A DNA stretch of 64,000 nucleotides from a virus (Duplodnaviria; Heunggongvirae; Uroviricota; Caudoviricetes), in IMG/VR virus record IMGVR_UViG_3300012153_000089, positions 1 to 64,000 of that record, one strand, 5' to 3'. The notes under the pieces are model-generated. The model searched no databases and had not been told where the DNA came from. It worked only from the letters and a program-made list of their open reading frames with translations. Positions 17,631 to 63,670 of the stretch are shown one piece after another. A program made the position numbers and the translations under genes. How positions within the stretch are numbered: the first letter of the stretch is position 1; every line of letters begins with the position of its first letter.

Positions 17631-18152
17631 TCACCCTTTCAGCGACATAATTAGTATTGATATAAAATTGAATGCTGCATGACTTATTATTGGAACTATG
17701 AGACTGTTGCTTTTGTTGTAATACCAGCACCACAAGAATCCAATAAATACATAGCCTAAAAATGCTGCTGGATTGAAATGTGGAATTGCGAATAATATTG
17801 AGCTGATTAATGCTGATACCTTAAATCCTAATTTGTGATTGAGTCGTTTAAATATGAATCCTCTACATATGTACTCTTCTATGATGGGGCTGAATGTTAC
17901 ACTGTAGATATATACCACTGGGACAGAAATTGGTGTATCTAGTATCGTAGCCGTTTCAAAATATTTACTTGTCAAAGAATTGACAATGTTAAATCCAATA
18001 AAAGCAAACATTGTTGAGTAAAATAAATTTTCAAGATTATTTCTTAAATTAAATCTGTTTAATTCTTCAATTATCTTGTTCCGTTGCTTGACTATAAGCC
18101 ACCCCAACATTATCGGTGGTAAAATTACCAATGCCAATTTAAAGATTATCAA
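17631..18152 (-). CDS. CPBP-family intramembrane metalloprotease (CAAX protease / Abi family)
   Basis: 173 aa, multi-TM. Motifs EEYICRGF (EExxxR), FAIPH (FxxxH) and HAAFN (HxxxN). Confidence 0.7.
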   Translation of the reverse strand: MIIFKLALVILPPIMLGWLIVKQRNKIIEELNRFNLRNNLENLFYSTMFAFIGFNIVNSLTSKYFETATILDTPISVPVVYIYSVTFSPIIEEYICRGFIFKRLNHKLGFKVSALISSILFAIPHFNPAAFLGYVFIGFLWCWYYNKSNSLIVPIISHAAFNFISILIMSLKG

Positions 18153-31012: not shown

Positions 31013-31825
31013 CTAAATCGCTTCAATTATTTTTTTAGCTTTATGCATATTTTCTATGGTTAAGTCTGCTGGATGATAATCTACGAATTTCTGTTGTTTG
31101 TTATAAGTCTTAACCCACCTCTCTTGATCAACATCAATAACACTGCCCATAGTGGACATAATCTCGAAAGAGGAAGTATCGCAACTAATATTCAGTAGAT
31201 CAACGTCTACTCCAATGACTTCTAAAACTTCTTTTATGTATGCTACTTCTTTTAAAACACTGAATGTACCAACTCCGAAAATATGAACGTCTTTAACTTT
31301 AGATTTGCTGATAATGGGCAGTCCAATTTTAATAGCATCCAATAGTTTGAACTTTATCTCATTCACTCTTCCTGACATTGCCACTCCGCCCAGCCCAATA
31401 CAATCTTCTGGTGAAGCTATTTTTAATGTTTCAACCAAACATTCAATGTATTCCTTTGTTGTTGCGCCCTGAATCATGAGTACTAATTGCCTTGGGTTCA
31501 ACTCTTCACGTTTAGAAACTAAGTATTTATTGGCCTCAATTGTATCTTCAACGTTTCCAATGTGGTCATAAGCAACAATTCTCTCACAAATCATGCCAAC
31601 CTTGCTCTCAAGTTTCAGTTGTCGTTCTAGTGCTTCCTCAACTGTTATGCGCTTATCTTTGTCAGTATCCTGAAAAGCGCCGCTATCCATCAAGATTTTC
31701 GTTTCAGGGTTCCTGATAGTAATGCCTTTATACTTTGGATTCAAGCAGACACTTTGCGTGATGAATTCAGTGTTTAGTTCCTTGGTATTTAGTTTGTCAT
31801 TGCATTTTGATAAATATAGTCTCAA
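31013..31825 (-). CDS. dpdA: TGT-family transglycosylase, DpdA-like (putative DNA-guanine transglycosylase for 7-deazaguanine insertion)
   Basis: 270 aa. Catalytic-Asp motif ILMDSGAFQD (cf. tRNA-guanine transglycosylase LTDSGGFQ), GLGGVAMSG and HIFGVG motifs. No C-terminal Zn subdomain. Short, phage-type length. Confidence 0.6.
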   Translation of the reverse strand: MRLYLSKCNDKLNTKELNTEFITQSVCLNPKYKGITIRNPETKILMDSGAFQDTDKDKRITVEEALERQLKLESKVGMICERIVAYDHIGNVEDTIEANKYLVSKREELNPRQLVLMIQGATTKEYIECLVETLKIASPEDCIGLGGVAMSGRVNEIKFKLLDAIKIGLPIISKSKVKDVHIFGVGTFSVLKEVAYIKEVLEVIGVDVDLLNISCDTSSFEIMSTMGSVIDVDQERWVKTYNKQQKFVDYHPADLTIENMHKAKKIIEAI

Positions 31826-32831: not shown

Positions 32832-34349
32832 TTAGTTTACTTCTTGATAATCCTCAATGAATAATTGGCATGTCTTAATTACTTTCTTCTTTGGTCGATA
32901 CTGAGTCCACATGTTCATATTAAGTGAACCTACAGCTTCAACTTCTATGAATACTGGTACTTGGTCGTAATACTCTTCATCTGTTTTAAACTTCATCAAT
33001 TGTAATTTTCCACAATCAATCTTTACTGTGTTATTGGTCTTGCCCATCAATTTCTTATCAGAGATGAACAAGTCTTTGATTAAGAATGTTCCGGGCTTGA
33101 AGTTATTGCCTGAATAACGATAAAACTCTGTAAGATAGTTGATTAGATTTTCATTAACACAATCAGCACTAAACTCTAAATCGTAATATATAGTGTCGTC
33201 CGGTACAAAGTCTTGAAGTTTGGAGTTGAGTTCAAGTCGAAGCAATTCAAGATGAGTTATTGATACACCCACACCACCTGCGCCATCGTGTCCTGCGGCA
33301 TAAATCACATTCTCACAAGTCTTTAATAATTCCAGCATCGAAAAGTCATCTAATCCCCTGAAGCTTCCTGAGTATGTATCTTCGTCATCTCCAAAACCCA
33401 ACACAATTGCTGGTCTGTTATACTTCTTCGAAATCTCTTGTGCCACTAGACCATTCAGTCCTCTTCCAACAGTAGGATCAAAAACTATAATCACCTTGTC
33501 GGTTTCACAAAGTCCCGTTTTCATTGCTTCAGTGGCTTCTGACTGGACAAGTTTGCGGTTTTCATTTAGTTTGATTAGTTCTTTAACATATCCCTTAGTT
33601 TCTGGCGTAGTTTTGTCGCACATCAGAAAGTCTATTCCCAATTTTATATTGTCGGCTCTCGTTGCTGCTGTTACTGCTGGACTAGCACCATACAAGAAAT
33701 CTGTCGAGGTGAGATTTTTCAAGTCTGAATTCATCGCTTCGAACAATAGCTTCATACCTTCATGTCGTAATCCTTTGAGTGACACTTTTGCAAAATATCT
33801 ATTCTCCATTTCCTTCATGCACATAACATCTGCCATTAAAGCGAATCCCGGCAAATCGCTCAACTCAAGCGAGTATCGAGTATCCATATAATCATCTATT
33901 ACTTGGCACACTTTATATACCAGCAGCCCACCTGAAGCATTCTTATTTGGGTACTCACATCCTATTTGTTGAGGATTCACTAAAATACAGTATGGATTCT
34001 CTACATCAACTGAATGATGATCTATAACTAGACAATCAATACCTTTATCAACTAGCACTTTTAATGGCTCTACATCATTACTACTGCTATCTACTGCTAT
34101 GTATAAGTCTGTATCATCTTCAATTTGGTCGATGATGAATTTAGAGCCGTGTCCTTGGCTACGTTCAACATATTTGATCTGAACATTATCAGTGAACCTT
34201 AGTAGGATTTTATATAGTATCACCGTCGAAGAAATTCCATCAAAATCCACGTCTGCATAAATCATAATCTTCTCACCGTTCTTAATTGCTCTTACAATGC
34301 GTTCAACCAATTTATCTATATTCTTTAGTAGATATGGACTATGTACCAC
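32832..34349 (-). CDS. recJ: RecJ-like single-strand DNA exonuclease (DHH/DHHA1 phosphoesterase)
   Basis: DHH motif I (IMIYADVDFDGISS), motif III (VIDHH), and a GHDGAGG DHHA1 region. GTG start as called. The in-frame upstream 40 codons also look RecJ-like (see findings). Confidence 0.8.
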   Translation of the reverse strand: MVHSPYLLKNIDKLVERIVRAIKNGEKIMIYADVDFDGISSTVILYKILLRFTDNVQIKYVERSQGHGSKFIIDQIEDDTDLYIAVDSSSNDVEPLKVLVDKGIDCLVIDHHSVDVENPYCILVNPQQIGCEYPNKNASGGLLVYKVCQVIDDYMDTRYSLELSDLPGFALMADVMCMKEMENRYFAKVSLKGLRHEGMKLLFEAMNSDLKNLTSTDFLYGASPAVTAATRADNIKLGIDFLMCDKTTPETKGYVKELIKLNENRKLVQSEATEAMKTGLCETDKVIIVFDPTVGRGLNGLVAQEISKKYNRPAIVLGFGDDEDTYSGSFRGLDDFSMLELLKTCENVIYAAGHDGAGGVGVSITHLELLRLELNSKLQDFVPDDTIYYDLEFSADCVNENLINYLTEFYRYSGNNFKPGTFLIKDLFISDKKLMGKTNNTVKIDCGKLQLMKFKTDEEYYDQVPVFIEVEAVGSLNMNMWTQYRPKKKVIKTCQLFIEDYQEVN

Positions 34350-34732
34350 ATCAGAGAGTGGATTAAGAAACTCATCAATATTTTCAATTCCGTTTATCTT
34401 GGCTAACTTTGAGTATGTATTATCATATGACTCAAACGGAATTTTAGGTAGTTTTTGTTTCCACGCTATGGCAAAATCACACCTTTCAACATTTTATTGA
34501 ATGACTATTTTGAATTTTTCAGGTAATGCAATATTCTCATTATCATTCATCCAACTACTCGTCAACCACTTGTCTACCAATCCTGTCTGTTTGTTGATGA
34601 TTTTGATATTTACTTTTCTCAAATCAATCACTCCTCAGAAATTAGTTAAGCAGCAGTTCCAAAACCCTTGCGTTTACTGGCTTTTTTGATCTGTATTTCT
34701 TGATGAAAGAGCAGTTTCATTTAAACCTTAAA

Positions 34733-34945
34733 TTACCACCAATATCGGTCTGTTTCATCTGAATATTCGCCCATCTTGCAATAACGCTGATAGTGATCCC
34801 AATTATCCAAATCTAGTCCTTGCTTTTTGGCATCCTCATAATCCTCATCTGAATATGGCTTCGTTGGATCGCCACCACACAACGATAATTCTTCAATGCT
34901 GCTTCTTTGAATCAATTGATTGATAATATCTTCCGTTGAATTCAT
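34733..34945 (-). CDS. hypothetical protein (70 aa)
   Basis: packed ORF. Confidence 0.4.
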   Translation of the reverse strand: MNSTEDIINQLIQRSSIEELSLCGGDPTKPYSDEDYEDAKKQGLDLDNWDHYQRYCKMGEYSDETDRYWW

Positions 34946-34972
34946 ATTCAGTTCTCCTTTAAATCGAATTTC

Positions 34973-35299
34973 TTACCACTTAACACTTGGAAGCTTATGT
35001 AGCTTTCTTACATATCTTTTGACTAGCCAGTAGCTGATTGGATCGCGAATCTTCATACCCTTATCTTCAAACTTGATGATGCTTGCATGAAAATAACATT
35101 TAGCTTCTTCATTTTCGAAACTCTTTGGATGAGACTTCAGCCGTTTCCATTCGTATTTATTCCAGTTCTCTTTAAATTTCTTGTAGCTTCCCCATCCAGA
35201 TCTCTGCGTGTCGCCATTGGTCATAGAGATATGACCTAACCAAGGCACACAGGGAATTGAAATTAGTGCGTAAATAATCAAGCAGGCTGCAATTAACAT
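34973..35299 (-). CDS. hypothetical membrane-anchored protein (108 aa)
   Basis: N-terminal TM helix. Confidence 0.45.
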   Translation of the reverse strand: MLIAACLIIYALISIPCVPWLGHISMTNGDTQRSGWGSYKKFKENWNKYEWKRLKSHPKSFENEEAKCYFHASIIKFEDKGMKIRDPISYWLVKRYVRKLHKLPSVKW

Positions 35300-35338
35300 T
35301 TACATTCTCTCCTTTTGTAAGTAAAAGTATATTTTCTT

Positions 35339-35566
35339 TCACATTTCAATTACACCAGCATTTGAAATGTGAAGTACTCTGATATATGTACCCTCACTAT
35401 TTTGGCGGGTATTCCTATAGAGCTTGGCTACTCCAATCACTTCTTCTTTATCTAAATATATTCTACTTTGGAAAACATCGTTGATAAGCTGCCCTTTGTT
35501 ATTCAAGTACCCCTTATCTCGTACTCCAATGACATAAACCTCTTCTTTGGTATTTGTAATATGCAT
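35339..35566 (-). CDS. hypothetical protein (75 aa)
   Basis: AAAGGAGAG SD. Confidence 0.5.
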   Translation of the reverse strand: MHITNTKEEVYVIGVRDKGYLNNKGQLINDVFQSRIYLDKEEVIGVAKLYRNTRQNSEGTYIRVLHISNAGVIEM

Positions 35567-35591
35567 TTAAAACTCTCCTTTAAGTAGTATT

Positions 35592-35777
35592 TTAGTTAAA
35601 AAACTCTTTCAATTCTCTGATGCCATCTTGAAGCTTGCGTAGATTGTCATAAACGTCATCTTCAATTAGTTCCTTGTCAGGAAGATTTTCAAACACTTCA
35701 TTCCAACTGATAATTTGCAACTCATGCAATGCCTTACCCATCTCTGTAATAGTTTCTTTTGCTTCTCGAATGTTCAT
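35592..35777 (-). CDS. hypothetical protein (61 aa; the long ORF to 35924 is trimmed to Met50)
   Basis: internal ATG at 35777 has an AAAGGAG SD at 9 nt and removes the overlap with the next gene. Confidence 0.45.
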   Translation of the reverse strand: MNIREAKETITEMGKALHELQIISWNEVFENLPDKELIEDDVYDNLRKLQDGIRELKEFFN

Positions 35778-35799
35778 ATGTATTTCTCCTTTTAATTTG

Positions 35800-36090
35800 T
35801 TATAGTACTTCTGGAACCAAAGTGTAAAATGTATCAAAATTATCAATCTTGGCATAGTCAACAAATCCATCTGGGAATAAAAGTTTATACCTTGGAACAG
35901 TCTGCGATCTAGTAGATGTATCAATAGTAACTACACCTGAAATTAGTGGACTTCCTCCATGCTTACTGTGGAATGCTTTCAGTGTCCAAAGTGCATTGTT
36001 GACCTCGTAACCGTATTTCTCAGCAATATCTGAACCCATAAGGGGTTCTCTAGGAACTACTCTAACAATTCCTTCATTCATACTCATCAC
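35800..36090 (-). CDS. hypothetical protein (96 aa)
   Basis: packed ORF. Confidence 0.5.
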   Translation of the reverse strand: MMSMNEGIVRVVPREPLMGSDIAEKYGYEVNNALWTLKAFHSKHGGSPLISGVVTIDTSTRSQTVPRYKLLFPDGFVDYAKIDNFDTFYTLVPEVL

Positions 36091-36146
36091 TCTCCTATTC
36101 TATGACAATCATATTTAATCAGATATTCATTCTCTTTTGGATAATT

Positions 36147-36326
36147 TCCAAATCGTCCATAGTGATAATTTCTCTGTAATAATATTCAGGAGTAATTTTC
36201 ACTAACCCTTCAGCTAATTCCCAACTCAATTCCTTCCCTATTACATCTCCGTTGATTGTTTCATCTTGCCATTCAACCACTGCATATTTTGTATCCACAT
36301 ATGAGCCTCCTTTCTCTAAGAAACTC
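36147..36326 (-). CDS. small hypothetical protein (59 aa, GTG start, below cutoff)
   Basis: AAAGGAGG SD 7 nt before the GTG. Coordinates approximate. Confidence 0.35.
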
Positions 36327-36340
36327 TTCTTTTACTTGCT

Positions 36341-36769
36341 TTAGTTACTATTATATAGAACCATTATTTCTTTAAGATTCTTGATTTCAGAACTCCATCT
36401 TTCGTCTTTATTCCTCTCTTGAATGTTTTTTATTTCCAGTGGGATTTGAGCAACACCCTCTTCTACAATCCTATTCCAAGTCTTGTTTATTGGTAATGTC
36501 ACAATCCCATACTCCGTATAGCTCACTGTTTTTTGCATTGCAAGCGCAACCTTCATTGCTGTTTCGGCGTTTCTTGTATATTTTTGCTTGCCGAAATATT
36601 CTACAAGTCTAGCTGAAACCATTTCTTTTCTTTGATTAAAATCTTCAAATGACCACCATAGATTATCAATTGCAAAAGCATGAATAATTCGATATTGATC
36701 TTTTGTTTTCAAAATATAAATCCCATTATCAGCACTCATTAACACTTCTCCTTTTCTTATGAAATTCAA
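36341..36769 (-). CDS. hypothetical protein (142 aa)
   Basis: packed ORF. Confidence 0.5.
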   Translation of the reverse strand: MNFIRKGEVLMSADNGIYILKTKDQYRIIHAFAIDNLWWSFEDFNQRKEMVSARLVEYFGKQKYTRNAETAMKVALAMQKTVSYTEYGIVTLPINKTWNRIVEEGVAQIPLEIKNIQERNKDERWSSEIKNLKEIMVLYNSN

Positions 36770-36782
36770 ATTTTACTTAGAT

Positions 36783-37064
36783 TCAATTCTCGTCTTGATC
36801 GCTATTGCTTTCTACAATCATCCAATCTTCTGCAAAAATGTCCATCTGTGATGGAAACCAAGGTGCAAACTTATTGTTCGCAGTTTTTATTTCTATGTAA
36901 GGTACATGTTCAAAGTCACTGCTATTGCCATCACTTGAGAATGGCGAAGATGGTGGAGTAACCTTATGCAACCACACTCCTTTTTCAACCCATCCTTCGC
37001 GCGCTACCATATTCCAATCATCTTTCTTCATATAATCAATCGCTTGACCAAAATTCATTTGCAA
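36783..37064 (-). CDS. DUF2829-type small phage protein (candidate Tad2-like anti-Thoeris sponge)
   Basis: 93 aa. N-terminus MNFGQAIDYMKKDDWNMVAREGW matches the characteristic MxFGEAlxalKxGkkvaRxGW signature of this family, from memory. Confidence 0.45.
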   Translation of the reverse strand: MQMNFGQAIDYMKKDDWNMVAREGWVEKGVWLHKVTPPSSPFSSDGNSSDFEHVPYIEIKTANNKFAPWFPSQMDIFAEDWMIVESNSDQDEN

Positions 37065-37121
37065 TACTCTCTCTCCTGTTCTTTATGAAATCCAACCTTT
37101 ATAACATATTACGTTATTTTA

Positions 37122-37370
37122 TTATTTATTGAGTTTGAAAAATTCTTTTTTGCAACAAATCCAGAACGAAAAGTTTTCTTTTCCGTTGTCATCTACTATG
37201 TATGTTTCACTATCAATGCTCGCATTCTTTGCATATTTCTTAACTTTCATCTCGTAGAGTTTTCCAATGGTTACTGGCATTTCCCTAAGCTTGGCTAATA
37301 TTTTGACATGTGTTGCCTCCTCACTGGAGTCAATTTTCATCAAATCAGATTCGCTTATTGCAGCATACAT
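37122..37370 (-). CDS. hypothetical protein (82 aa)
   Basis: first gene after promoter copy 4. Confidence 0.5.
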   Translation of the reverse strand: MYAAISESDLMKIDSSEEATHVKILAKLREMPVTIGKLYEMKVKKYAKNASIDSETYIVDDNGKENFSFWICCKKEFFKLNK

Positions 37371-37399
37371 TTAACCATCCCTTTCGATCTGATAATTTT

Positions 37400-37443
37400 A
37401 TTATAAACTTATATTACAGTAAGTCAAGTGTTATTTTATTATT
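37400..37443 (-). promoter_or_regulatory. conserved element plus sigma-A promoter (TTGACT-16-TATAAT), copy 4
   Basis: plus-strand AAGTGTTATTTTATTATT at 37426-37443. Confidence 0.6.
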
Positions 37444-37475
37444 TATTATTCCAATGAAAACTATATTTTATCTGC

Positions 37476-37631
37476 TTATACATCAGTCAAAATATCCATC
37501 ATCTTTTCAATGTCCTCATCATTCAAACCGTTAACCTCTTTCCAATCCTTGACCATAAACTTTAAAGGTGGACACTCTAGATCCCACCAAGATAGAAAGC
37601 TAAGTTGTTCAAGCTGCTTTACAGTAAACAT
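37476..37631 (-). CDS. small hypothetical protein (about 51 aa, below cutoff)
   Basis: MFTVKQLEQLSFLSWWDLECPP... Coordinates approximate. Confidence 0.35.
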   Translation of the reverse strand: MFTVKQLEQLSFLSWWDLECPPLKFMVKDWKEVNGLNDEDIEKMMDILTDV

Positions 37632-37645
37632 TTAACATCTCCTAA

Positions 37646-38581
37646 TTAAACTCTAATTTTGTATTTGTCTTCATGTACCATTTTCGTGAAAAATTCAATG
37701 CCATGGTCTATTGGGGCATCTTTCTCTCCCATTACACCTGTATTTTTACTAGCAAATAAACAGTATATATTGTCTCGCAATACAAACTTCCTAGCTTCGT
37801 CTTTGATCTCATCACTAGTTACGTTATTATCGAATGCCAATACAATCTCTACACCCAAACGTTCCAACTTTAGCACTTGAGTTTCACTTAGTTCATGCCC
37901 ACCAATGCTAACACTATTTTTAATTCCATAACTCCACGCTTTCTGGACACTTTTTTCAGCCTCAAATACATAGACACGTCCAGTAGACTTAATGTGCTCA
38001 TATGTCTTATCAAGTCCGTATAAGATTAGGCTTTTAGGAGTAGGCACAGGATACCAATACTTTGAGATTTTCAGCTTCTCATAGTCTAATGTCGTCCTTC
38101 CCTTTACTCCAACTAGAGAGCCAAGATCATCTCTTACAGGTATGGTTATGCAGTTGTCATTGAGTGAGTATCCCACTTCAAATAACCGTTGTGTTTCACA
38201 TGATATCCCCTCCTCTAAGAACTTCCAATTTGGCATTGATATGTACATGTTTAAAACTGATTCGTCTATTCTACGTAGTGGAACTTCATCTTTGTCCTCT
38301 GTTTTTGGTTCGATTGAGTCCAAGAAGGATAGTATGGGATCTACCTCTTCTTTCGTGTACTTGTAATCTGAGTAATAGCTGTACCCACACACATCGCAGA
38401 TATAGTACATTGCTTTTGAAAACGATATGTCTTTGTAATGCTGCACAAGAGTTATTATATCCGCTGGTTTTGGTAGGGTGTCTGTATAACAATTAACTAA
38501 AAGTGAATCAGTGAACACTTGTAAACTTGAAGGATTGTCCCCTCCCGGTCTTGTAGAGCGTATTTCACTATGGTCTGACAT
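37646..38581 (-). CDS. dnaG: DnaG-like DNA primase (TOPRIM domain)
   Basis: RNA-polymerase domain segment ITIPVRDDLGSLVGVKGRTT. TOPRIM domain VYVFEAEKSVQKAWSYGIKNSVSIGG...VEIVLAFDNN. Directly downstream of the helicase gene. Confidence 0.75.
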   Translation of the reverse strand: MSDHSEIRSTRPGGDNPSSLQVFTDSLLVNCYTDTLPKPADIITLVQHYKDISFSKAMYYICDVCGYSYYSDYKYTKEEVDPILSFLDSIEPKTEDKDEVPLRRIDESVLNMYISMPNWKFLEEGISCETQRLFEVGYSLNDNCITIPVRDDLGSLVGVKGRTTLDYEKLKISKYWYPVPTPKSLILYGLDKTYEHIKSTGRVYVFEAEKSVQKAWSYGIKNSVSIGGHELSETQVLKLERLGVEIVLAFDNNVTSDEIKDEARKFVLRDNIYCLFASKNTGVMGEKDAPIDHGIEFFTKMVHEDKYKIRV

Positions 38582-38689
38582 TCTATCATTGATATGACAC
38601 CCTAGAGAGATTAAAATATCAGCAACTTTATTGTCTCGTATTATGTTGTCCTTTAAAGTTTGAGCATCAATTTTATATCACCTCTCGGA

Positions 38690-40177
38690 TTAATCCTTAT
38701 TCAAAGCCTTACGTAAATTTGCAACCTCTTTTTCAGTCTTAAGCTTTTTGTTCTCTTTCTTGAGTTGCTTAAGTTCTTTCTCTCCTTGCGATGGAACCAA
38801 GTACCCTTTTTCAATCCACAAGTTCTTCCCTTTATCTACTTCAAAACAAAGGATATCCTTGTCTTTACCGCCACGGTTCTTATCAATTACTACCATATAA
38901 TAGTTGATATGCATTTCTAATTGTGTTGTGGACTCTCCGATAAACGGGTCATTCGGGTTATATATCACGAATTTATCATACTGATCTCGTGAAATTGGCT
39001 TTGCCATCATTAATGAGTCTGCGACGTGTTTGATGTGCTTGCCGTTTGCAATAGCTTGGCTGGTGAGCATATCATTGAACAAACTGTCATCTGTCAATTG
39101 AAAAGTCGACCAAACAGGAATATCCTCAGTACTTGCAACCTCTTTTAACATATCGGCAGTTCTCACGAAAGTCATCCAGTCGTGATCCGGTGCTTTCATC
39201 GTGTCATAAATAATCAACTGACAGTTTCTCAGTTTATGGCGTTTGATTTGTCTTTTCAGAGTGTTTTCGTCATACTTGTTCAACTCCAAAAAGTATATCT
39301 TACTGTTTGCTTTTATGTATTGTGCTGCTTCTTTAACAATCTCTTTTTCGTCTTTATTTAGGGTTCCTGTGACTATTTTTGTCTCATCGATTCCATCAAT
39401 CCCTTTTCTCTTCATCTGGATATCAAACCCAAACTCGGGATTATTGAGAACGCAACTGATTTGCATTCCTAACCATTCAGCTTCATCTTGTTCATTTACA
39501 AGAACCAACACAGGGATCTGTAATTTTATGCCCAAATAGCATGCTATTTTACTTGTTGTGCGACTCTTTCCGCATCCACTATGCATTCCAAAAAGATTGA
39601 ACTTCTTACCACGAAGTCCTCGCAAAAGTCCATTGATAATAGAAAATGGAATTGGGACTCCAACATCTGGTGTTAATTCCCACTCTTCAATCTTATCTGG
39701 CATATTGTGTCCCAAGATAATACTATCTTCAACACCACCGATCACTGTACCAATGGTATTAATCTGATATTCCATTCCCTTAATAATGTCTTCTGTGCTT
39801 ATCTTGTCAAAGTCTTTTCTACCCATTAACTTCTGAACTGGGAATCCTTTTCTTTCAAATTCTCGTAACAATGAGTACTTCTTCAGTTTTTCATAATAAG
39901 TAGGGAAGTCATCTAAATCAACCAACTTCATAATCCTATCTATATATTTGTAACCTTTGAGATACTCATACTTTGCTTTTCTGTCTGTATCTGAATTCAT
40001 GTAGATGTTTATTTTCACTTCATTAATTTCTGTTCCAGCATGTTGACTATATAAATCCACAAGGGAATCATACAAAAACTTATTTGATGCTTGGTTGAAA
40101 TCATAATTAGACTTAATGAGCTCACTATAATCTAGAAATAAATCGGGATTTAGGTACATGCTGCCCACAATAAGCAT
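38690..40177 (-). CDS. dnaB: DnaB-family replicative DNA helicase
   Basis: 495 aa. Walker A LFGMHSGCGKSRT and a DnaB-like N-terminal domain. Confidence 0.85.
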   Translation of the reverse strand: MLIVGSMYLNPDLFLDYSELIKSNYDFNQASNKFLYDSLVDLYSQHAGTEINEVKINIYMNSDTDRKAKYEYLKGYKYIDRIMKLVDLDDFPTYYEKLKKYSLLREFERKGFPVQKLMGRKDFDKISTEDIIKGMEYQINTIGTVIGGVEDSIILGHNMPDKIEEWELTPDVGVPIPFSIINGLLRGLRGKKFNLFGMHSGCGKSRTTSKIACYLGIKLQIPVLVLVNEQDEAEWLGMQISCVLNNPEFGFDIQMKRKGIDGIDETKIVTGTLNKDEKEIVKEAAQYIKANSKIYFLELNKYDENTLKRQIKRHKLRNCQLIIYDTMKAPDHDWMTFVRTADMLKEVASTEDIPVWSTFQLTDDSLFNDMLTSQAIANGKHIKHVADSLMMAKPISRDQYDKFVIYNPNDPFIGESTTQLEMHINYYMVVIDKNRGGKDKDILCFEVDKGKNLWIEKGYLVPSQGEKELKQLKKENKKLKTEKEVANLRKALNKD

Positions 40178-40234
40178 CTCAGTTCCTAAATCCTCAATTT
40201 TGGAAACTTCTTCTGAGATAATCCCACCACCTTA

Positions 40235-40855
40235 TTAGTCAAACAATGTTGTTAAATCTAATTTTTCTTCACTTTCTTTAATCCTTTTGTTTTGTGCGTT
40301 ACTGATGATTTTATTTACTTCTTTCATTGAATCCACATGATTCATCAATATTTCTGTTTCGGCTTTATGCTTAGAAGACTTACTCCCATCTCTAAGGCAA
40401 TTCTCAATGTTGTTTCTTACAATAGCAAAACAATATTTTAGTTCACTCATCAAATTCTTAAACTCTTTATTCCCTTTTGCCCATTCAATTTTCTCAGCGC
40501 AGTATTCGTATGTATTCTCAATTGTTTTATAGGTGATTCCCTCTTTATAACGTTTACTCACCCTACCAAACAATACTGAATCATTCCTGAGTTCTTGAAT
40601 GTATGGATAGAAAGTATTAGGGATGGTATTCACGCTATTCAGTTTATGTATTTTTACTATAGCCTCAGCTAAACAGTCCAATTCTTTTCTTTCTTTGGCT
40701 TTGAAATCTTTGTCTTTTAAATACTTATCATGACAATACTCTAAGTGATAATATCGCTTATCTTCTTCATATTTCATATCTTCCTTCTGCCCATACTGAG
40801 TACAGATAGGACACTTAACTGGTCTAGCCAGTTTACTCACCTCCTTAGAATACAA
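40235..40855 (-). CDS. hypothetical zinc-finger protein (206 aa), between the ligase and helicase genes
   Basis: CPICTQYG...YCHDKY. Possible replication accessory or loader, but no ATPase motif. Confidence 0.5.
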   Translation of the reverse strand: MYSKEVSKLARPVKCPICTQYGQKEDMKYEEDKRYYHLEYCHDKYLKDKDFKAKERKELDCLAEAIVKIHKLNSVNTIPNTFYPYIQELRNDSVLFGRVSKRYKEGITYKTIENTYEYCAEKIEWAKGNKEFKNLMSELKYCFAIVRNNIENCLRDGSKSSKHKAETEILMNHVDSMKEVNKIISNAQNKRIKESEEKLDLTTLFD

Positions 40856-41672
40856 AACTTTCGAACTCAGGCAATCTCAACAAATTGTTTTTGGTATATC
40901 CTCTATGCTTAACTACACACTTGATGACAGGATCAATATAGACTGTATCCTCAGTTTCGCTTTTCTTGAGTTGTTGGAATACTTTGTATCCAGCTTTGCG
41001 TTCGTTTGCTCCTACAGCTAAAGTCATAACACCGACTATTTGTTTTCCGTCTGACAGAAGCCAGCCAAATTCATTTGTCTTGTATCCAGCAATGTAGTAT
41101 TCGCCTATTTCATAGGCAATTACCTTTAACCACTTATCAGAACGTTTATCGATCTCATACTTTGAGCGAATATCTTTTAAAACTACCCCTTCAAGCTTTT
41201 GCTCCTTAGCGACGTTAAAGTATTCAATTCCATTTCCTTTTATAAAAATGGATTTTGCATAGTAATCATTGTCTGTGAAGGCATTAGACAGTATTTCTTT
41301 GCGTTCTATGAGAGGTTTGGAGGTCACACTTTTTCCTTCAAAATTAATAATATCGAATGCACAGAAAGTGACTTTGTGCTTACTCTTCTTTGACATGAAC
41401 CGCTCCATGACAGATTCAAAACTTGGTTTACCATCTGAGTCAGTTACGATTAGTTCTCCATCAAGCGTTGTCCCTTTTCTTATTGGTATATTATCAACCA
41501 ACTCAGGAAACTTAGAAGTGACATCGTTATTGTGTCTTGTATAGATTTTTACTTTATCTCTGTAGTCAATGATAAGACGTATACCATCGAGTTTAAGCTC
41601 TGTTATATGCAAATCACTATTAAAAGGCTTATTATTTGGTGCTTTGTATAGCAACATTGGAGAAGTAAACAT
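40845..41672 (-). CDS. lig: ATP-dependent DNA ligase
   Basis: ligase motif I KLDGIR (ELKLDGIRLII). Probable start at Met5 (ATG 41672) with a GGGTGA SD. Confidence 0.75.
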   Translation of the reverse strand: MFTSPMLLYKAPNNKPFNSDLHITELKLDGIRLIIDYRDKVKIYTRHNNDVTSKFPELVDNIPIRKGTTLDGELIVTDSDGKPSFESVMERFMSKKSKHKVTFCAFDIINFEGKSVTSKPLIERKEILSNAFTDNDYYAKSIFIKGNGIEYFNVAKEQKLEGVVLKDIRSKYEIDKRSDKWLKVIAYEIGEYYIAGYKTNEFGWLLSDGKQIVGVMTLAVGANERKAGYKVFQQLKKSETEDTVYIDPVIKCVVKHRGYTKNNLLRLPEFESFVF

Positions 41673-41895
41673 ATTATCACCCATTTAAGTATATCAAACA
41701 GGTGTTTGTATTTTCAGCGGTAATATATGTATCGTTTTAGATATAAATTTACTCACTTTTCTCACAAACTTCTGAATCTTCCTTTTCGCTATCTTTACTT
41801 TTATAGTGCTTCAATATGTCGTCTACTGTTTTAAATTCTAGCTCCACTTACAATCAATCCAATCTTTGCTTAATCTTCTTTTTTAATATCTATTC

Positions 41896-42114
41896 TTAAT
41901 TGTATGGATTTCCAACTACAGTTTTATATTCTCCTTTATCAATATCATAGCTAATCCATGTATCACTTTCCTCATCTGGACTATCGATTTGACCTAAAGT
42001 TGGACAATACCCTTGGTCACCATATACTTTAATGAATACACCAGTTTCTTTTGTAATTTGATTTAATCTATCCAGAAATAATCTCATATTATTATCCATA
42101 TTAACCTCCCTCAT
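41896..42114 (-). CDS. hypothetical protein (72 aa)
   Basis: packed ORF. Confidence 0.4.
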   Translation of the reverse strand: MREVNMDNNMRLFLDRLNQITKETGVFIKVYGDQGYCPTLGQIDSPDEESDTWISYDIDKGEYKTVVGNPYN

Positions 42115-42179
42115 ACTCTCTTATTCTCTCGATATCGACCATATTCTAATCCAATATCTTGATGAAACTGTACTTTTAC

Positions 42180-43016
42180 TTACTCTTCATTGTCAGATGA
42201 TGCTGCCCCTTCTCCATCAAAAACCTGATCAATTACTTCAGATATCCATTCAGTACTAATAACAAAGTCAGGCTTAACTGATTGAATTTTAATTTGCTCA
42301 ATAATATCTCTAAACAAAGTCAAATCTACTCCAGTCAATTGTTCTTCTAGGACATTTGCATCGTCTAGTTTCAGCTCACCACATTGTAAGATCATCTTTA
42401 AGTATTGTCCTGCGTTGATACTCCAACCTCGTTGTATGTATTTTCTCGATCTAATAACAGATGCTAATGGATATTTTGAGCCAACATATTTTAATTCTTT
42501 GGTTACTATTGACTCAAGTGCTTTTTGTGGTAAGACCAATTCGTTCTTATGTGGGATGAAGTAACATGTACAATGAACGTAGTCATAATTCTTATGTATC
42601 TCTTCAGGGTTTCCATAAAATCTATTTACCAATTGAACATCGTCCGAAAGAGTGATTGCATTAGACGATACGAAGACTGGTAGATATCCTTCTTTGTATT
42701 TTGCTCCTGCTACTCCTGCACTTGGCACAATAACTCTAATTCTATTTTCTTTCTCTTCAACCTTAACATCGTAGTGGTTGTTGGTTCTCTTATTGAATTT
42801 TTTAGCGTAATACTCTGTTACCTTCTTACATGATTCTTTATCCATGAAATAGTAATCATAGTCATTTGGTTCTTCGTCAAGCAGTAGCGATACAATAGCT
42901 CCTCCGGTAATAAAAGACTTTTCGTTGACAATCTTTACGATTGACTCATCATCGATAGAACCAATAAAGTCTCTGTGGGCATCTTGCAGCTTACGTTTAA
43001 TTGTTTTTAAATTCAT
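42180..43016 (-). CDS. predicted nucleotidyltransferase-fold protein (278 aa)
   Basis: ITGGAIVSLLLDEEPNDYDYYF fits the pol-beta NTase signature hG[GS]x(9-13)DhD. Weak call. Confidence 0.35.
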   Translation of the reverse strand: MNLKTIKRKLQDAHRDFIGSIDDESIVKIVNEKSFITGGAIVSLLLDEEPNDYDYYFMDKESCKKVTEYYAKKFNKRTNNHYDVKVEEKENRIRVIVPSAGVAGAKYKEGYLPVFVSSNAITLSDDVQLVNRFYGNPEEIHKNYDYVHCTCYFIPHKNELVLPQKALESIVTKELKYVGSKYPLASVIRSRKYIQRGWSINAGQYLKMILQCGELKLDDANVLEEQLTGVDLTLFRDIIEQIKIQSVKPDFVISTEWISEVIDQVFDGEGAASSDNEE

Positions 43017-43050
43017 ATATGTATTTAATTCCTCCTAAATGGATCTTATT

Positions 43051-43359
43051 TTAGATATTTTTACACATCTTATTGCCTCTTAATCTTATAGCATTTTCAC
43101 TCAATTTCGGAGCAATGGGAGTGATCTTTCCTCCACTGTCATATCTCCAACCATCTCTACCTGTACCTTCACAGTCAGGACATTTATTTCTTGGATATCC
43201 CCATGTATATTCTTCATAACTATACTCATATTCGTATCCAGAGCCATCGCAGTGGGGACACTTTGGAAGACTGTCTAATATGTATTCTTCACTTTCAAGA
43301 TACTCTCTTCCCATTTTATCGAAGTAATTCTTTACTGCTTTTTTAGTTTTACGCGACAA
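43051..43359 (-). CDS. DnaJ-type zinc-finger (CxxCxGxG x2) small protein
   Basis: CPHCDGSG and CPDCEGTG. TTG start as called. The upstream in-frame region with a strong SD suggests a longer product (see findings). Confidence 0.5.
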   Translation of the reverse strand: MSRKTKKAVKNYFDKMGREYLESEEYILDSLPKCPHCDGSGYEYEYSYEEYTWGYPRNKCPDCEGTGRDGWRYDSGGKITPIAPKLSENAIRLRGNKMCKNI

Positions 43360-43449
43360 CCATTCAATGTCGAATGTGTTGCGTTCATGATACTTCCAGT
43401 GCTTATCTATGTATCTTGTATAGTTAATGACTTTCCCTCCTTTATATTC

Positions 43450-43494
43450 ATCTTATCATGCAATAAAATTAAATTCAAGTGTTATTTTATTATT
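43450..43494 (-). promoter_or_regulatory. conserved element plus sigma-A-like promoter (TTGAAT-17-TAAGAT), copy 5
   Basis: plus-strand AAGTGTTATTTTATTATT at 43477-43494, overlapping the stop of the HTH gene. Confidence 0.5.
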
Positions 43495-43774
43495 AATAAT
43501 GATTTATTTCAATCTTTATATCTAACGCCAACGCCAACTTAATCAACACTTCAATACTTGGAATATCATCATCCTTGGCTAAATAAATGATAGATTTCTC
43601 GCTAACCTGTGCTTTCAAAGCGAGATCAGCACTACTAATTTCCTCATCTTGTTGCTTTCTAAGAATAGCTACGGTAAGTTTAGCTGACAATGAGATCATC
43701 TTTTTTCTAACTTCTGAAGCATAATCGAGTGACTCTTTAATTTCAGTCCATCTTTTATGGTTTATGTCTATCAT
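43493..43774 (-). CDS. XRE-family HTH transcriptional regulator
   Basis: 93 aa. HTH segment ISSADLALKAQVSEKSIIYLAKDD. Confidence 0.65.
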   Translation of the reverse strand: MIDINHKRWTEIKESLDYASEVRKKMISLSAKLTVAILRKQQDEEISSADLALKAQVSEKSIIYLAKDDDIPSIEVLIKLALALDIKIEINHY

Positions 43775-47806: not shown

Positions 47807-47858
47807 TTTAATTTTCCCCTTTCTCCGTGAAAGACTAATTTTACTTTCTCTTATTACC

Positions 47859-48438: not shown

Positions 48439-48713
48439 TCGATTCTAATCTTCTTTCCTAACTCATTAACCTTTGAAACAATCCCACTTACAGCTCGTTT
48501 CGAATTCGATTCAAAAATCTCAAAGTACGCTTCTTCAGTATATCTATATGATATTCCTATGTTTTGATAAATTACTTCCCATTCGTCCTCGTGTAGAAGT
48601 GGTTTAGTTAAATCGTTATCTCTTGAACGATGTTCAATGATTCTTTCTTTATGTTGTGGCAGCATCATACGACTTGATTCCCACAGCCCATTTGCCTCCA
48701 GCTTTTTGCTCAT
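48363..48713 (-). CDS. yolD: YolD-like protein (partner of the Y-family polymerase)
   Basis: 116 aa, immediately downstream of and overlapping the uvrX-like gene, as in the B. subtilis uvrX-yolD and yqjW-yqjX pairs. The call rests on synteny and size. Confidence 0.55.
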   Translation of the reverse strand: MSKKLEANGLWESSRMMLPQHKERIIEHRSRDNDLTKPLLHEDEWEVIYQNIGISYRYTEEAYFEIFESNSKRAVSGIVSKVNELGKKIRIEWENGHEWIDIKSLVAVRLSGGGLE

Positions 48714-49951
48714 TTATAGTGCCCCCCAATTTTATTTGATCTGTCGATGGCCTGACCAGCAGAGGTAATTGAACTTGCTCTAAGTATGGCTATGTCGCCA
48801 TATCGATCCTTGATGTCATCCATTACCTTATCAATTGCTCTCTTCTGTTCTTGGTCATCAAATAAAGACAGTTGATAAGTCTCAGCATTGGAGAGGTTGG
48901 ACAAAGATACCCCAACTCGTCTTACAGGTTGACCGTCCCAATGATGTCGGAATATTTGTTTAGCTATCTTACACACATCAACTGTTATGTTTGTGGGATC
49001 TTGAAGTTTAACCTGTCTGCTGAATCCGGTTGGATGATCAAAATCTGCACCAGATAAACTCATCGTGACCACGCTACCCATCAACCCCTTTTTCCGGGCA
49101 CGTCTGCAAACCTCAGTACAGATGTCTTGAATGACTACTTCAATCTCCCAAGCTTCAGAATAATCCCTAGGCAGCGTCATACCGTTCCCTATATCCTTTT
49201 GTACACTATGAGTATTAATTGTTACTGGAGAGTCATCCAGTCCATTTGCTACTCTCCAAATAACCTCTCCGTTTACGCCCCATTTGCTTCTCAATTTGGA
49301 CAGAGGTGTATCGGCAAGCTGTTTTATTGTTCGAATTCCCATTTTCCATAAATGTTTTTCCATCCTAGAACCAATACCCCACATATCCCGGATTGGCTTA
49401 TCACCTATGCGCTGGTGAAGCTCCTCTTTTTTAAGAAAGAATACTCCACCTTCAATTTTCTTCGCGATCATATCACAGCAAAGCTTACTCATCACCTTGT
49501 TGGTTGATATACCTGCTCTTGCATAGACTCCCGTTTCATTGTAAATCTTGTCTTGAATCTGCTTTGCTAAATCAATGGGATCATTGCCAAAAAGGTGTAG
49601 TGATCCTGACACGTCCGCGAAAAGTTCGTCGATGCTATAGGGTTCCACTAAGTCAGTAAACTCCTCAATAATGGACATAATTTGAGTTGAAACTTCGATG
49701 TATTCCTGCATATGCGGTCTTACGATAATCAGTTCAGGACACTTTTGAAGTGACTGCCATAATGGTTCAGCGGTTGACACGCCTTTTGCTTTAGCTAAAG
49801 GACATGCAGCAAGTATTATTCCCGATCGTCTTGCTGGATCTCCTGCAACTGCCAATGGTTTGTCTTTATATTGTGGCATTTTAGCCTTTTCAACACTGGC
49901 ATAAAACGACTGCATGTCAATTAACATTATAGTCCGCTCTTTTTTAGCCAT
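48710..49951 (-). CDS. uvrX: Y-family (UmuC/DinB/UvrX-like) translesion DNA polymerase
   Basis: IMLIDMQSFYASVE hallmark. Probable start MAKKERTIML (ATG 49951, GGGAGTGA SD). The ORF-track start at 50005 lies inside the LexA box. Confidence 0.85.
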   Translation of the reverse strand: MAKKERTIMLIDMQSFYASVEKAKMPQYKDKPLAVAGDPARRSGIILAACPLAKAKGVSTAEPLWQSLQKCPELIIVRPHMQEYIEVSTQIMSIIEEFTDLVEPYSIDELFADVSGSLHLFGNDPIDLAKQIQDKIYNETGVYARAGISTNKVMSKLCCDMIAKKIEGGVFFLKKEELHQRIGDKPIRDMWGIGSRMEKHLWKMGIRTIKQLADTPLSKLRSKWGVNGEVIWRVANGLDDSPVTINTHSVQKDIGNGMTLPRDYSEAWEIEVVIQDICTEVCRRARKKGLMGSVVTMSLSGADFDHPTGFSRQVKLQDPTNITVDVCKIAKQIFRHHWDGQPVRRVGVSLSNLSNAETYQLSLFDDQEQKRAIDKVMDDIKDRYGDIAILRASSITSAGQAIDRSNKIGGHYK

Positions 49952-50882: not shown

Positions 50883-51388
50883 CAGTATCGCTCCTCTTTT
50901 TTTAATATCTTAATCTTATACTCTTTACAGGTGTTCAACAAAGCAGTCAGAAGTAAGTCTAATTAGAATCATAAAAGGAGAAACATAATAGTACACTTTT
51001 ATCTATATTAATCTTAGAATTTAGCCAATTTTCGCATGAAAGCGTCCATTTTTGCCTTAACCGTTAAATCTATATGTAATATCTAATTCAAAGTCATGCT
51101 GCGGTTTCAAATTGTAAAGCGTCTTGCCTACTTTACGTACATGTCTACAGCAATTACCTGTCTCTCCTCTAAATAATATTGAATCGTTGTAGCACTGCAA
51201 TTAAAACAAATGATATCATCATCACATAAAAATATGCCTTATGCGAAAATTTTGATTTGTTAGTGAAACTTATAAAACGGCTCGGTAGATATATTAACAC
51301 CATCGTTCCCAACATACCTAAGGCTGCATTGAAGAAATTAATCAGAATCTATATCTCCTTTCTCTTCGAAATGTTCATTTTATCAAAA

Positions 51389-54605: not shown

Positions 54606-54826
54606 TCTAATTCCTCCAATGCTCCTTCTAAGCTTTCGATTTCGCCCCAGCCATATTTATAATAGAAATTCTGACTATTGTCATGACTGTCAATGTATAG
54701 CTCGTAGTAGTCTTCACCTTCTTCGTTGCAGCCATTCGACCACCACAAATCTACAACTTCGTGATTTGTTCTAAAACTTACGATGTGTCTAGTTACTTCT
54801 GGCAGTCCATTCAACTCAATAAACAT
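54602..54826 (-). CDS. hypothetical protein (74 aa)
   Basis: 4-nt overlap with the macro-domain gene. Confidence 0.45.
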   Translation of the reverse strand: MFIELNGLPEVTRHIVSFRTNHEVVDLWWSNGCNEEGEDYYELYIDSHDNSQNFYYKYGWGEIESLEGALEELE

Positions 54827-54855
54827 ATTCTTCTCCTTTCTCCATGAAACGTGCC

Positions 54856-55029
54856 TTTTACTTAGAGTAGTGTATATTTAAAATCTTCAATATTTTCTCT
54901 GCCTCTTCTTCATTATAAAAAGTTGCTACTAGTTGATCCTGTGTGTCATGATCGCGGAAAGTTCCTTCTTTTTCATAAAGTTCGATCTCACCTTTTCTAC
55001 TTATTTCAATAAAATATAAATCATTCATG
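54856..55029 (-). CDS. small hypothetical protein (57 aa, below cutoff)
   Basis: AAGGGTGA SD at 6 nt. Coordinates approximate. Confidence 0.35.
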
Positions 55030-56003: not shown

Positions 56004-56037
56004 ATAATATATAGATGTAAAGTGTTATTTTATCATT
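55993..56037 (-). promoter_or_regulatory. conserved element plus sigma-A promoter (TTTACA-17-TGaTATGAT), copy 7
   Basis: plus-strand AAGTGTTATTTTATCATT at 56019-56037, immediately 3' of the 56039 gene stop. Confidence 0.55.
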
Positions 56038-56038
56038 A

Positions 56039-56551
56039 TTAATTAATTCTAATATGCTTTTTATCCTTTACAAGAAGGACACCTTCAACTGCAATACCAC
56101 TTTTCACATCATTCAATAAAGCTTTACTGTCAATCTTCGGATCTTGAGCTGTCTTGTATTTATCTGGAACCTTTCTGGGGTCAACAATATTGATTGATGG
56201 AGGATTTGTTTGTAGTTTAATTTTAAATGTTCCAGCATGCACTTTCTCAAGATTATTTCTTTGAAGATATTCCTGTAAAAGTTTCTTCAAACGCTCTTGT
56301 TTATTCTCCATATATTTGCGCTTCTTACTAAAACGCTCCTCCTCAAGTTTGTAAGCTGCAATATCTCCTTCGAGATTCCGTACGAACTTTACGATGTTCT
56401 CGCATTTATTCTCAACACCGTCCTCAAGTGCTTCCAATGTGTCTTTGTACATCTCAAAATCATCTTCACCAATTTCTTCGTTCTCCATAGCTGCTTCAAG
56501 ATATTCGGTTAAAAATTTATAGTCCTCAGACAATTTGTAAAGTGATGGCAT
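56039..56551 (-). CDS. hypothetical coiled-coil protein (170 aa)
   Basis: packed ORF. Confidence 0.5.
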   Translation of the reverse strand: MPSLYKLSEDYKFLTEYLEAAMENEEIGEDDFEMYKDTLEALEDGVENKCENIVKFVRNLEGDIAAYKLEEERFSKKRKYMENKQERLKKLLQEYLQRNNLEKVHAGTFKIKLQTNPPSINIVDPRKVPDKYKTAQDPKIDSKALLNDVKSGIAVEGVLLVKDKKHIRIN

Positions 56552-56943: not shown

Positions 56944-57873
56944 TTACTTCACTTCTTCTATGTATCCGTTGTTAATCAAAATTTTAATTACAGATAATGT
57001 TAATAAATGAGACTTATTGTCCACTCTGTACTGTTTCTTGTTTGTGTTAAAACCAACGATGCCTCCACTCCAACTGCTGCTGTTTCTCTTGTTCATTAAG
57101 AATGAATGGATTGAACTTCTACTTTGATAAAAATCAACTTGCTCGTCTCTATTTTTATCAGTGTTATATTCTTTGGTTAGTTTCTTTATGTCAATTACTT
57201 CTGTTCTTGATTCAGGATTGTCAATAAAACCATACTTATTTGTGATTTTGTGGTTTGATCCAAACGGCAAAGATTTGGCACCACATTTGGGACAGCCACT
57301 AGGATAGTAACCATCACCCATTAGAGTCATTTCTTTAGTCATTTCAGATTCTAGCATTTCTTCGTTACATCCATAACAAAGCCTAATGTCATCTTTAAGA
57401 TATTTACCAGGTTTATATTCATTCTTCATAATTTCAATCTTTAAGTTTTTATTTAGGATATAATCAATAATTCTTTCTTTAACTTGATGCTTATTACAAC
57501 AATCCAAGCACATATCTCCGTAACCACTGATTGTAATAAATCCTTCGTTAAACTTCACTCCACTATAAAGAATTGGTTTATTAAAGTTCTTATCTCCCTT
57601 GCTATGATAGCGACTGCTTCTTGGATATGTCTTGTAGTCAGGCTTCTTGTCGCAATAATCACAAGAGCGAATTGATTTATGTGTCCACTTTAATTTCCCA
57701 TTCTTCTCAGACTGTTTGATTATTTCATTCATTACAGGTAAATCAAAACCATATGATGATTCTTTCTTAGCCTCATTAATGACTTTTTGAATCACCTCAG
57801 AAGTATTCCCGTCTAGTTTTAATAGTTCATTTAGTGGTAGTTCGACTTTAAATAACTTTTCGATACTTTTCAA
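56944..57873 (-). CDS. hypothetical Cys-rich protein (309 aa)
   Basis: four CxxC pairs (CDYCD, CLDCC, CYGCN, CPKCG). Confidence 0.55.
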   Translation of the reverse strand: MKSIEKLFKVELPLNELLKLDGNTSEVIQKVINEAKKESSYGFDLPVMNEIIKQSEKNGKLKWTHKSIRSCDYCDKKPDYKTYPRSSRYHSKGDKNFNKPILYSGVKFNEGFITISGYGDMCLDCCNKHQVKERIIDYILNKNLKIEIMKNEYKPGKYLKDDIRLCYGCNEEMLESEMTKEMTLMGDGYYPSGCPKCGAKSLPFGSNHKITNKYGFIDNPESRTEVIDIKKLTKEYNTDKNRDEQVDFYQSRSSIHSFLMNKRNSSSWSGGIVGFNTNKKQYRVDNKSHLLTLSVIKILINNGYIEEVK

Positions 57874-58824: not shown

Positions 58825-58859
58825 TTGCTCATCCTTTCTCCGTGAAAGTCCTCTTTTAT

Positions 58860-59048
58860 TTAATCACGAAATTTAATAAAAAGTACCTCACTAGTGCTGG
58901 TTCCCCAAATACGATCCATAGGCACATACATCTCACAACGATGATCATTGTCTTTTTCAATGGTTACCTCAAATTCTCTGGTACTTTCCTTAACTGTAAT
59001 GTCATAAATATCATTATATTTAACAAATACTTTTACATATGTCTTCAT
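58860..59048 (-). CDS. hypothetical protein (62 aa)
   Basis: packed ORF. Confidence 0.4.
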   Translation of the reverse strand: MKTYVKVFVKYNDIYDITVKESTREFEVTIEKDNDHRCEMYVPMDRIWGTSTSEVLFIKFRD

Positions 59049-59496: not shown

Positions 59497-59523
59497 ATCG
59501 CTACTCCTTTCTTTATGAATTTT

Positions 59524-63644: not shown

Positions 63645-63670
63645 CCTCCTTTCTCAATGAACTCTTTATT

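Follow-up and report, generated by a model that had tools for sequence, protein, structure and literature searches.

Probable near-cognate AUA, AUU, AUC and CUG start codons behind strong Shine-Dalgarno sequences in the replication module of an SPβ-like Paenibacillus-type prophage

In Staphylococcus aureus, retapamulin ribosome profiling (Ribo-RET) detected only four non-canonical start codons genome-wide, all with an extended Shine-Dalgarno (SD) sequence (PMC13009471). These are the AUA of infC, the AUU of cvfC1, the AUA of ccpN, which is conserved in B. subtilis too, and the AUA of citZ (Nat Commun 2026, PMC13009471). Ribo-RET together with reporters placed AUU and AUA starts behind extended SDs at approximately 10–30% of the level of AUG (PMC13009471). 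In Escherichia coli, infC, which encodes initiation factor 3 (IF3), and pcnB are described as starting at AUU (Binns and Masters, 2002, as cited in PMC13009471 and PMC2939334). Here, we analyze start codon usage in a 64,000-nucleotide (nt) stretch of viral DNA (positions 1 to 64,000 of IMG/VR record IMGVR_UViG_3300012153_000089; hereafter, the window) that derives from a large, SPβ-like prophage of a Paenibacillus-type host. At least six genes of this window very probably start at near-cognate AUA, AUU, AUC or CUG codons behind strong SDs. Four of the six, which encode a YorH-like protein, the replicative helicase, the primase and a RecJ-like nuclease, belong to the replication module; the other two encode a small Zn-ribbon protein and a predicted membrane protein.

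The sites resemble the S. aureus cases in their extended, Firmicute-type SD at a fixed short spacing, in the conservation of an AUH codon (H = A, C or U) among orthologues, and in the fact that annotation misses or truncates the gene. They differ in number and setting: S. aureus has four sites in a 2.8-Mb genome, scattered over host regulatory and metabolic genes, whereas at least six are found here in 64 kb of prophage, four of them clustered in the replication module, with CUG and AUC also in use. The S. aureus starts were mapped by profiling, whereas those described here are predicted from sequence. The likeness to E. coli infC and pcnB is by analogy, in that an inefficient AUU limits translation and makes it responsive to IF3 discrimination; both are single genes of the host, infC with a proven autoregulatory loop, whereas the genes considered here are phage replication genes.

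Among phages, SPβ-like vB_BsuS-Goe12 and Geobacillus virus E3 carry the same gene families in the same order from ligase to the alpha subunit of DNA polymerase III (Pol III). However, the annotated starts of yorI, dnaG and yorK in Goe12 are all ATG, and in virus E3 the primase starts with ATG and the helicase most likely with GTG, whereas the Paenibacillus prophage clade has AUH or CUG instead. The same census, carried out over 50 kb of the syntenic Goe12 region, returned one false positive and one possible unannotated open reading frame (ORF) with an ATA start. The latter (L029:47017-47232, approximately 107017-107232 of MT601273.1) spans 71 codons within a 460-nt annotation gap, with its ATA 9 nt behind AAGGAGG, and may be an unannotated non-canonical-start gene of a true SPβ-like phage. 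With this one outgroup region compared, the density of near-cognate starts seems to be characteristic of the Paenibacillus prophage clade. A search of the literature on phage or SPβ near-cognate starts of this pattern found nothing specific. The mechanism is of a known kind; what is new is the density of the sites and their clustering in a replication module, together with their conservation and convergence.

The window has a GC content of 35%, and nearly all of its genes, including every near-cognate-start gene described here, lie on the minus strand. The module consists, in order, of genes for an ATP-dependent ligase, the YorH-like protein, helicase, primase, RecJ-like nuclease, a protein similar to queuine tRNA-ribosyltransferase (TGT), the large and small subunits of ribonucleotide reductase (RNR), Pol III alpha and a ParM-like protein. 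Pfam matches in the window, the synteny from ligase to Pol III alpha, and the presence of relatives in Paenibacillus chromosomes all place it among SPβ-like replication and nucleotide-metabolism modules, which sit on prophages of about 130 kb or more in Bacillota hosts. A megablast search with the RecJ region yielded no match in the phage collection, and protein-level and IMG/VR searches were therefore used. Relatives L006-L013, three of which reside in Paenibacillus chromosomes, were taken from IMG/VR and the GTDB genome collection (67–86% identity to the window at the RecJ protein), and L019-L024 were added via exact-protein look-ups (58–65%); across twelve relatives the RecJ-like protein is 58–86% identical to that of the window.

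SD strength was calculated as the duplex energy between the leader of each candidate start and a Bacillus-type anti-SD, and spacing as the number of nucleotides between the GGAGG-equivalent core and the start codon. All six starts are situated 5–9 nt behind strong or extended SDs with energies of −11.5 to −17.0 kcal/mol, and no plausible start intervenes between any of them and the in-frame stop codon or promoter that precedes it. Further downstream, the canonical codons have SD energies of −0.4 to −7.2 kcal/mol, and any in-frame GTG is confined to the SD. An SD at least as strong as −11 kcal/mol precedes 4 of the 59 in-frame ATH or CTG codons located upstream of first canonical starts, as compared with 4 of 1280 such codons inside genes (0.18 expected; P ~4e-5), and a chance occurrence of such sites is excluded. 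The mean SD energy of five of the sites (CTG 40831, at −17.0 kcal/mol, was found later) is −13.0 kcal/mol, against −10.1 kcal/mol for 124 canonical genes of the window (Mann-Whitney p = 0.006).

The original prediction concerned three of these genes (RecJ-like, primase and Zn-ribbon), for which it offered either repeated near-cognate initiation or indels, frameshifts and true N-terminal truncations. Because standard gene callers accept only ATG, GTG and TTG, the proteins appear in public records in shortened form, beginning at arbitrary codons further downstream: the Zn-ribbon gene of the window is annotated from ATG 43314 as an 87-aa protein (P0121), and in the protein collection the lengths given for RecJ relatives range from 447 to 551 aa, with many differing truncated N-termini. 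Taken at face value, such calls favor a reading in which the upstream segments are untranslated and the genes, whether truncated, mutated or mis-sequenced, begin at the downstream canonical codons. We regard this as highly improbable. The downstream canonical codons have no SD (−0.4, −0.9 and −1.5 kcal/mol), and starting there would cut off the RecJ N-terminal helices and the Cys/His region of the primase; the YorH-like protein would lose its CxxC motif, and half of a transmembrane helix would be missing. The public truncations strip conserved N-terminal motifs. The near-cognate codon and its SD are conserved in 2 to 13 genomes per gene, and recurrence of the same elements in as many as 13 independent genomes is incompatible with sequencing error, recent mutation or pseudogenization. 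In the N-terminal extensions that were checked (RecJ, primase, helicase and Zn-ribbon), variation falls mostly at third codon positions, which argues that these extensions are translated; they vary as coding sequence does, and not as the non-coding DNA whose presence in orthologues would have spoken against the near-cognate option. Alignment with orthologues, a check that the original prediction had proposed, reveals ATG or GTG at the position in distant homologues and ATA, ATC or ATT in relatives within the clade, and for the RecJ-like, primase and Zn-ribbon genes the near-cognate codon coincides with residue 1 of the ATG- or GTG-start homologues. Together, these comparisons support repeated near-cognate initiation and refute lesions of the three loci.

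The RecJ-like (YorK-like) DHH exonuclease gene, which has Pfam matches to DHH, DHHA1 and RecJ_OB, is re-drawn here as 32832-34469 on the minus strand, with 545 codons and a predicted start at ATA 34469-34467. Its first canonical codon, at which gene callers would begin, is GTG 34349; the frame upstream of this GTG is open for 48 codons, back to TAA 34496-34494, and holds no ATG, GTG or TTG. The 40 codons ahead of the GTG read IAWKQKLPKIPFESYDNTYSKLAKINGIENIDEFLNPLSD, and an extended SD, GAAAGGTGTGAT, occupies 34476-34487 (minus strand; −13.9 kcal/mol; 9 nt from core to ATA). The original prediction had described this locus in the same terms, and each of its particulars was confirmed. Matches found by tblastn start at the residue encoded by ATA 34469. 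The ATA GCG TGG of the window aligns with GTG GCG TGG, where the gene of Alicyclobacillus phage KKP_3916 is annotated to start, and the ATA likewise aligns with Met1 (ATG) of Bacillus phage PK-3. Relatives retain AAAGGwGTGAT at the SD unchanged, as well as the spacing. Among 13 distinct genomes, including the window, the start codon is ATA in 10 and ATC in two (L019 and L021), whereas in L023 it may be either a GTG 3 nt past the SD or an ATA 9 nt past it. The NCBI record of one relative (P0014) is already annotated with the ATC start, and the frame is closed by a stop two codons before the start in L008 and L019. Variable sites in the extension comprise 26 of 39 third positions against 16 of 78 first and second positions. 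No genome of the clade has ATG at this start, even though ATA to ATG is a single transition and the neighboring synonymous sites are near saturation, which argues that the weakness of the start may itself be under selection.

The primase, a YorJ-like protein of the DnaG/Toprim type for which Toprim matches were found, is re-drawn as 37646-38671 on the minus strand (341 aa), with a probable start at ATT 38671-38669. This codon follows an in-frame TGA by three codons and lies 5 nt behind an extended SD, GAGAGGTGAT (38677-38686, minus strand; −13.1 kcal/mol). The ATT GAT GCT of the window aligns with the ATG GAT GCT of Geobacillus virus E3, and in Clostridium phage c-st an ATG preceded by an SD aligns with the ATT. 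All eight genomes compared have ATT as the start, and the SD context GAGAGGTGATAyAAA is near-invariant in seven of them, with AGGCAGGTGATCTAAAA in L023; a different primase allele, present in L007, L010, L019, L021 and L024, starts with ATG. Variable sites in the extension fall at 16 of 29 third positions and 3 of 58 first and second positions. The Cys/His-containing segment LGCHINDRM does lie upstream of the canonical ATG 38581, as originally predicted, although the open in-frame stretch before that ATG measures 32 codons and not 20. The start proposed for it, ATA 38641 behind the AAAGGA at 38644, is rejected on SD energies, the alignment with virus E3 and the conservation of ATT 38671 among relatives; the SD of the latter codon is much stronger. 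In Clostridium phage c-st, the deposited start of the primase CST059 (L005:1695) appears to be placed 16 codons too far downstream, and an SD-preceded ATG upstream fits the N-termini of the homologues.

The helicase and primase genes are separated by two in-frame stops in every genome, and two of the six genes are promoter-proximal (see below); readthrough from upstream genes is therefore unlikely. Programmed frameshifting from a short canonical-start ORF in another frame could also deliver ribosomes into the gene frame, and phage genes expressed by frameshifting or reinitiation share with the present ones an apparent lack of a start codon and a close upstream ORF. In the window, mini-ORFs do overlap the primase ATT (TTG ATG, 38670-38665) and the RecJ-like ATA (TTG CCA TAG or GTG ATT TTG CCA TAG). 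Unlike in such systems, there is no slippery site (no slippery heptamer), overlapping stop-start motif or conserved RNA structure here, and two genes are promoter-proximal; the leaders do not fold significantly (z = −1.2 to +0.8). The RecJ spacer of L008 lacks the TTG and retains the ATA, so that the mini-ORF is not conserved, the homologues align in the gene frame from the very first codon, and no mini-ORF of this kind accompanies the Zn-ribbon, YorH-like or membrane-protein gene. Having failed on slippery site, structure and conservation, the frameshift model was rejected as extremely improbable.

Beyond the three genes first noted, an SD scan and a wider scan uncovered ATC 40219, CTG 40831 and ATT 51348 as candidate starts. 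The first belongs to the DnaB-like replicative helicase, re-drawn as 38690-40219 on the minus strand, for which ATC 40219-40217 is preceded by the SD AAGGTGGTG at 40225-40233 (−11.5 kcal/mol). The protein is approximately 41% identical to the E3 helicase, the homology starts upstream of ATG 40177, and the likely GTG start of the E3 gene falls within one codon of the ATT ATC pair of the window. Seven relatives (L006, L008, L009, L011, L013, L020 and L023) have ATT in place of the ATC of the window. ATC 40219 is favored over the codon before it, ATT 40222, because L008 and L020 carry AAC at the latter position. As deposited, the E3 helicase E3_0100 (L004:351) seems to start 16 codons too far downstream, and an SD-preceded GTG upstream fits the N-termini of its homologues. 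In L010, L019, L021 and L024, an unrelated, YorI-type helicase (22–24% identical to that of the window) takes the place of the DnaB-like protein. Its start is read as ATA in L010, L019 and L024 and as ATC in L021, whereas the orthologue in Bacillus phage Goe12 has ATG; the YorI-type allele has converged independently on the same kind of predicted weak start.

Directly upstream, the YorH-like Zn-finger protein (40235-40831, minus strand; 198 aa) is predicted to start at CTG 40831-40829, 8 nt behind the SD TAAGGAGGTGA (−17.0 kcal/mol). The codon is CTG in eight genomes, L008 and L020 have TTG at exactly this position with the same GGAGGTGAT before it, and an in-frame stop codon directly precedes the CTG in L006 and L024. 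Pfam Phage_SPbeta_YorH matches the YorH orthologues of the relatives.

The close packing of these genes invites an alternative in which ribosomes arriving from the upstream gene restart at the AUH or CUG, by termination-reinitiation or 70S scanning, so that translation depends on coupling only and a weak codon suffices, a new round of 30S selection being unnecessary. An upstream stop on the same strand does precede four of the six genes by 10–24 nt, namely in the pairs ligase/YorH-like, YorH-like/helicase, helicase/primase and 45-aa ORF/RecJ-like. As a full account we consider this quite unlikely, since it sits poorly with the unusually strong SDs at all six genes and with the remaining two genes, which are found directly behind promoters with short leaders and hence need de novo initiation at AUU. 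Even under reinitiation the start codon stays non-canonical, and the alternative modifies near-cognate initiation without replacing it: coupling may add to the expression of the four closely spaced genes and leaves the identity of their start codons unchanged.

The first of the two promoter-proximal genes encodes a small Zn-ribbon protein of the CxxC...CxxC type (43051-43428, minus strand; 125 aa), with a probable start at ATT 43428-43426. As originally predicted, the SD (AAAGGAGGG, 43435-43443; −13.1 kcal/mol) lies 6 nt before this in-frame ATT, and 23 sense codons separate the ATT from TTG 43359. In the relative L007 the start is an ATC behind AAAGGAGG. Residue 1 aligns by BLASTP with Met1 (ATG, SD GGAGGT) of a 41%-identical Paenibacillus peoriae protein (P0122); a tblastn search of phages with the Zn-ribbon protein gave no match. 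A candidate sigma-A-type promoter, as read from its letters, occupies 43450-43478 on the minus strand (TTGAAT −35 element, 17 nt, TGnTAAGAT). Because this putative promoter lies just upstream, ATT 43428 would be the first SD-preceded codon of the transcript. The −35/UP part of the promoter is a member of repeat family D7 (37421-37449, 43472-43500 and 56015-56043), an A/T-rich element, ATAATAAAATAACACTTGAMTT on the minus strand, that contains the −35 hexamer and a likely UP element. This family presumably corresponds to the 'promoter copies' mentioned in the original prediction.

The second is a predicted 59-aa membrane protein (51169-51348, minus strand) with a probable start at ATT 51348-51346 and an SD, AAAGGAG, at 51355-51361 (−13.5 kcal/mol). 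The ATT is present in five of five genomes, where the following codon is CTG or CTA. Because this next codon varies while the ATT is invariant, CTG 51345, for which relatives have CTA, was rejected as the start. Paralogous leaders within the window give a further comparison: ATT 51348 is in register with the ATG of three of the four other copies of repeat family D1, and the copy at 47807-47847 has its ATG 3 nt further on. Family D1 (36298-36338, 47807-47847, 51346-51386, 54824-54864 and 58822-58862) is a repeated promoter-leader unit on the minus strand, composed of a −10-like TAAAAG or TAAAAT, approximately 6 nt, TTTCnnnGAGAAAGGAG, approximately 6 nt and the start codon. Units of the D1 type occur also at 61964-61997, 63645-63678, 36745-36781, 59501-59537 and 62208-62238. 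The CTTTC...GAAAG halves of the unit could pair and thereby partly mask the SD, and the unit may be the signature of jointly regulated genes or of a promoter class specific to the phage. A consensus promoter and terminator scan found no enrichment.

Several points weigh against near-cognate initiation at these sites. The assignments derive wholly from comparing sequences, and an internal Ile codon would likewise alternate between ATA, ATT and ATC, a reading countered only by the upstream stops and promoters. In L010, L023, L024 and L025-L027, a GTG carried within the SD is in frame and would in principle be usable despite its spacing of 0–3 nt. For the helicase, ATT 40222 and ATC 40219 are not fully separable in the window itself. 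Low or IF3-dependent expression as the purpose of these starts is pure inference.

Two other loci of the window and several in the relatives have a bearing on how far the usage may extend. In the region 18137-18152, three codons compete as start, TTG, ATA and ATC at 18152, 18149 and 18146, which lie 3, 6 and 9 nt after GAAGGTGAT. In a 309-aa ORF that ends at 56944, no canonical start is preceded by an SD, and the sole strong SD (region 57780-57873) is located approximately 14 nt before ATT 57780, too far for this codon to be accepted as a further case. Among the relatives, additional candidate starts that have no canonical start nearby and whose SDs score −10.8 to −16.3 kcal/mol (L013:12671 CTG, L007:16311 CTG, L008:12859 ATC, L011:12725 ATA and L013:16656 ATA) suggest that the habit may reach other genes of the clade.

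How might such starts be used? A long helix between SD and anti-SD would hold the 30S subunit in place while formylmethionyl-tRNA pairs with two of the three bases of the codon, and the resulting proteins would begin with formylmethionine. A special tRNA could provide another explanation, and phage-encoded tRNAs were looked for; none was found within the window. The output would be about one order of magnitude below that of AUG, or, by analogy with S. aureus, some 10–30% of it, and would be set by the strictness with which IF3 rejects non-canonical starts. Selection could keep the starts weak such that synthesis of the replication proteins stays low or depends on state, for instance to limit leaky expression in the lysogen.

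A more ambitious proposal, which at present we consider rather unlikely, is that the near-cognate starts of the four replication genes, and of a few small proteins, constitute a translational regulon coupling the onset of replication to the start-codon fidelity of the host, be it IF3 activity or the state of the ribosome. Leaky lysogen transcripts would then give rise to hardly any replication protein, and induction, physiological state or a phage factor would relax discrimination and turn on the whole module together. On this proposal, the independent ATA and ATC of the YorI-type helicase would reflect selection for membership in the regulon.

Further features were noted outside the near-cognate set, which makes up at least six of roughly 130 genes. 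A Y-family polymerase gene (48710-49951) is located upstream of the ligase. The TGT-like gene of the module (31013-31825, minus strand) encodes a 270-aa protein whose match to TGT is weak (E = 9e-5, under the Pfam cut-off), and the product could be a DpdA-like enzyme for 7-deazaguanine modification of DNA. Among the relatives, precomputed Pfam matches indicate an intein, with a LAGLIDADG endonuclease, in the RNR large-subunit gene of L024 (14481-15656).

Conserved non-canonical starts are very rare in Firmicutes, with four in S. aureus, and six within 64 kb stand out. Their clustering, their persistence in diverged prophages and the convergence of the unrelated helicase allele indicate that selection may favor weak initiation of replication proteins. 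The prophage clade would thus offer a natural multi-gene system in which to ask how an extended SD and IF3 fidelity set expression, and whether temperate phages curb leaky replication by this means.

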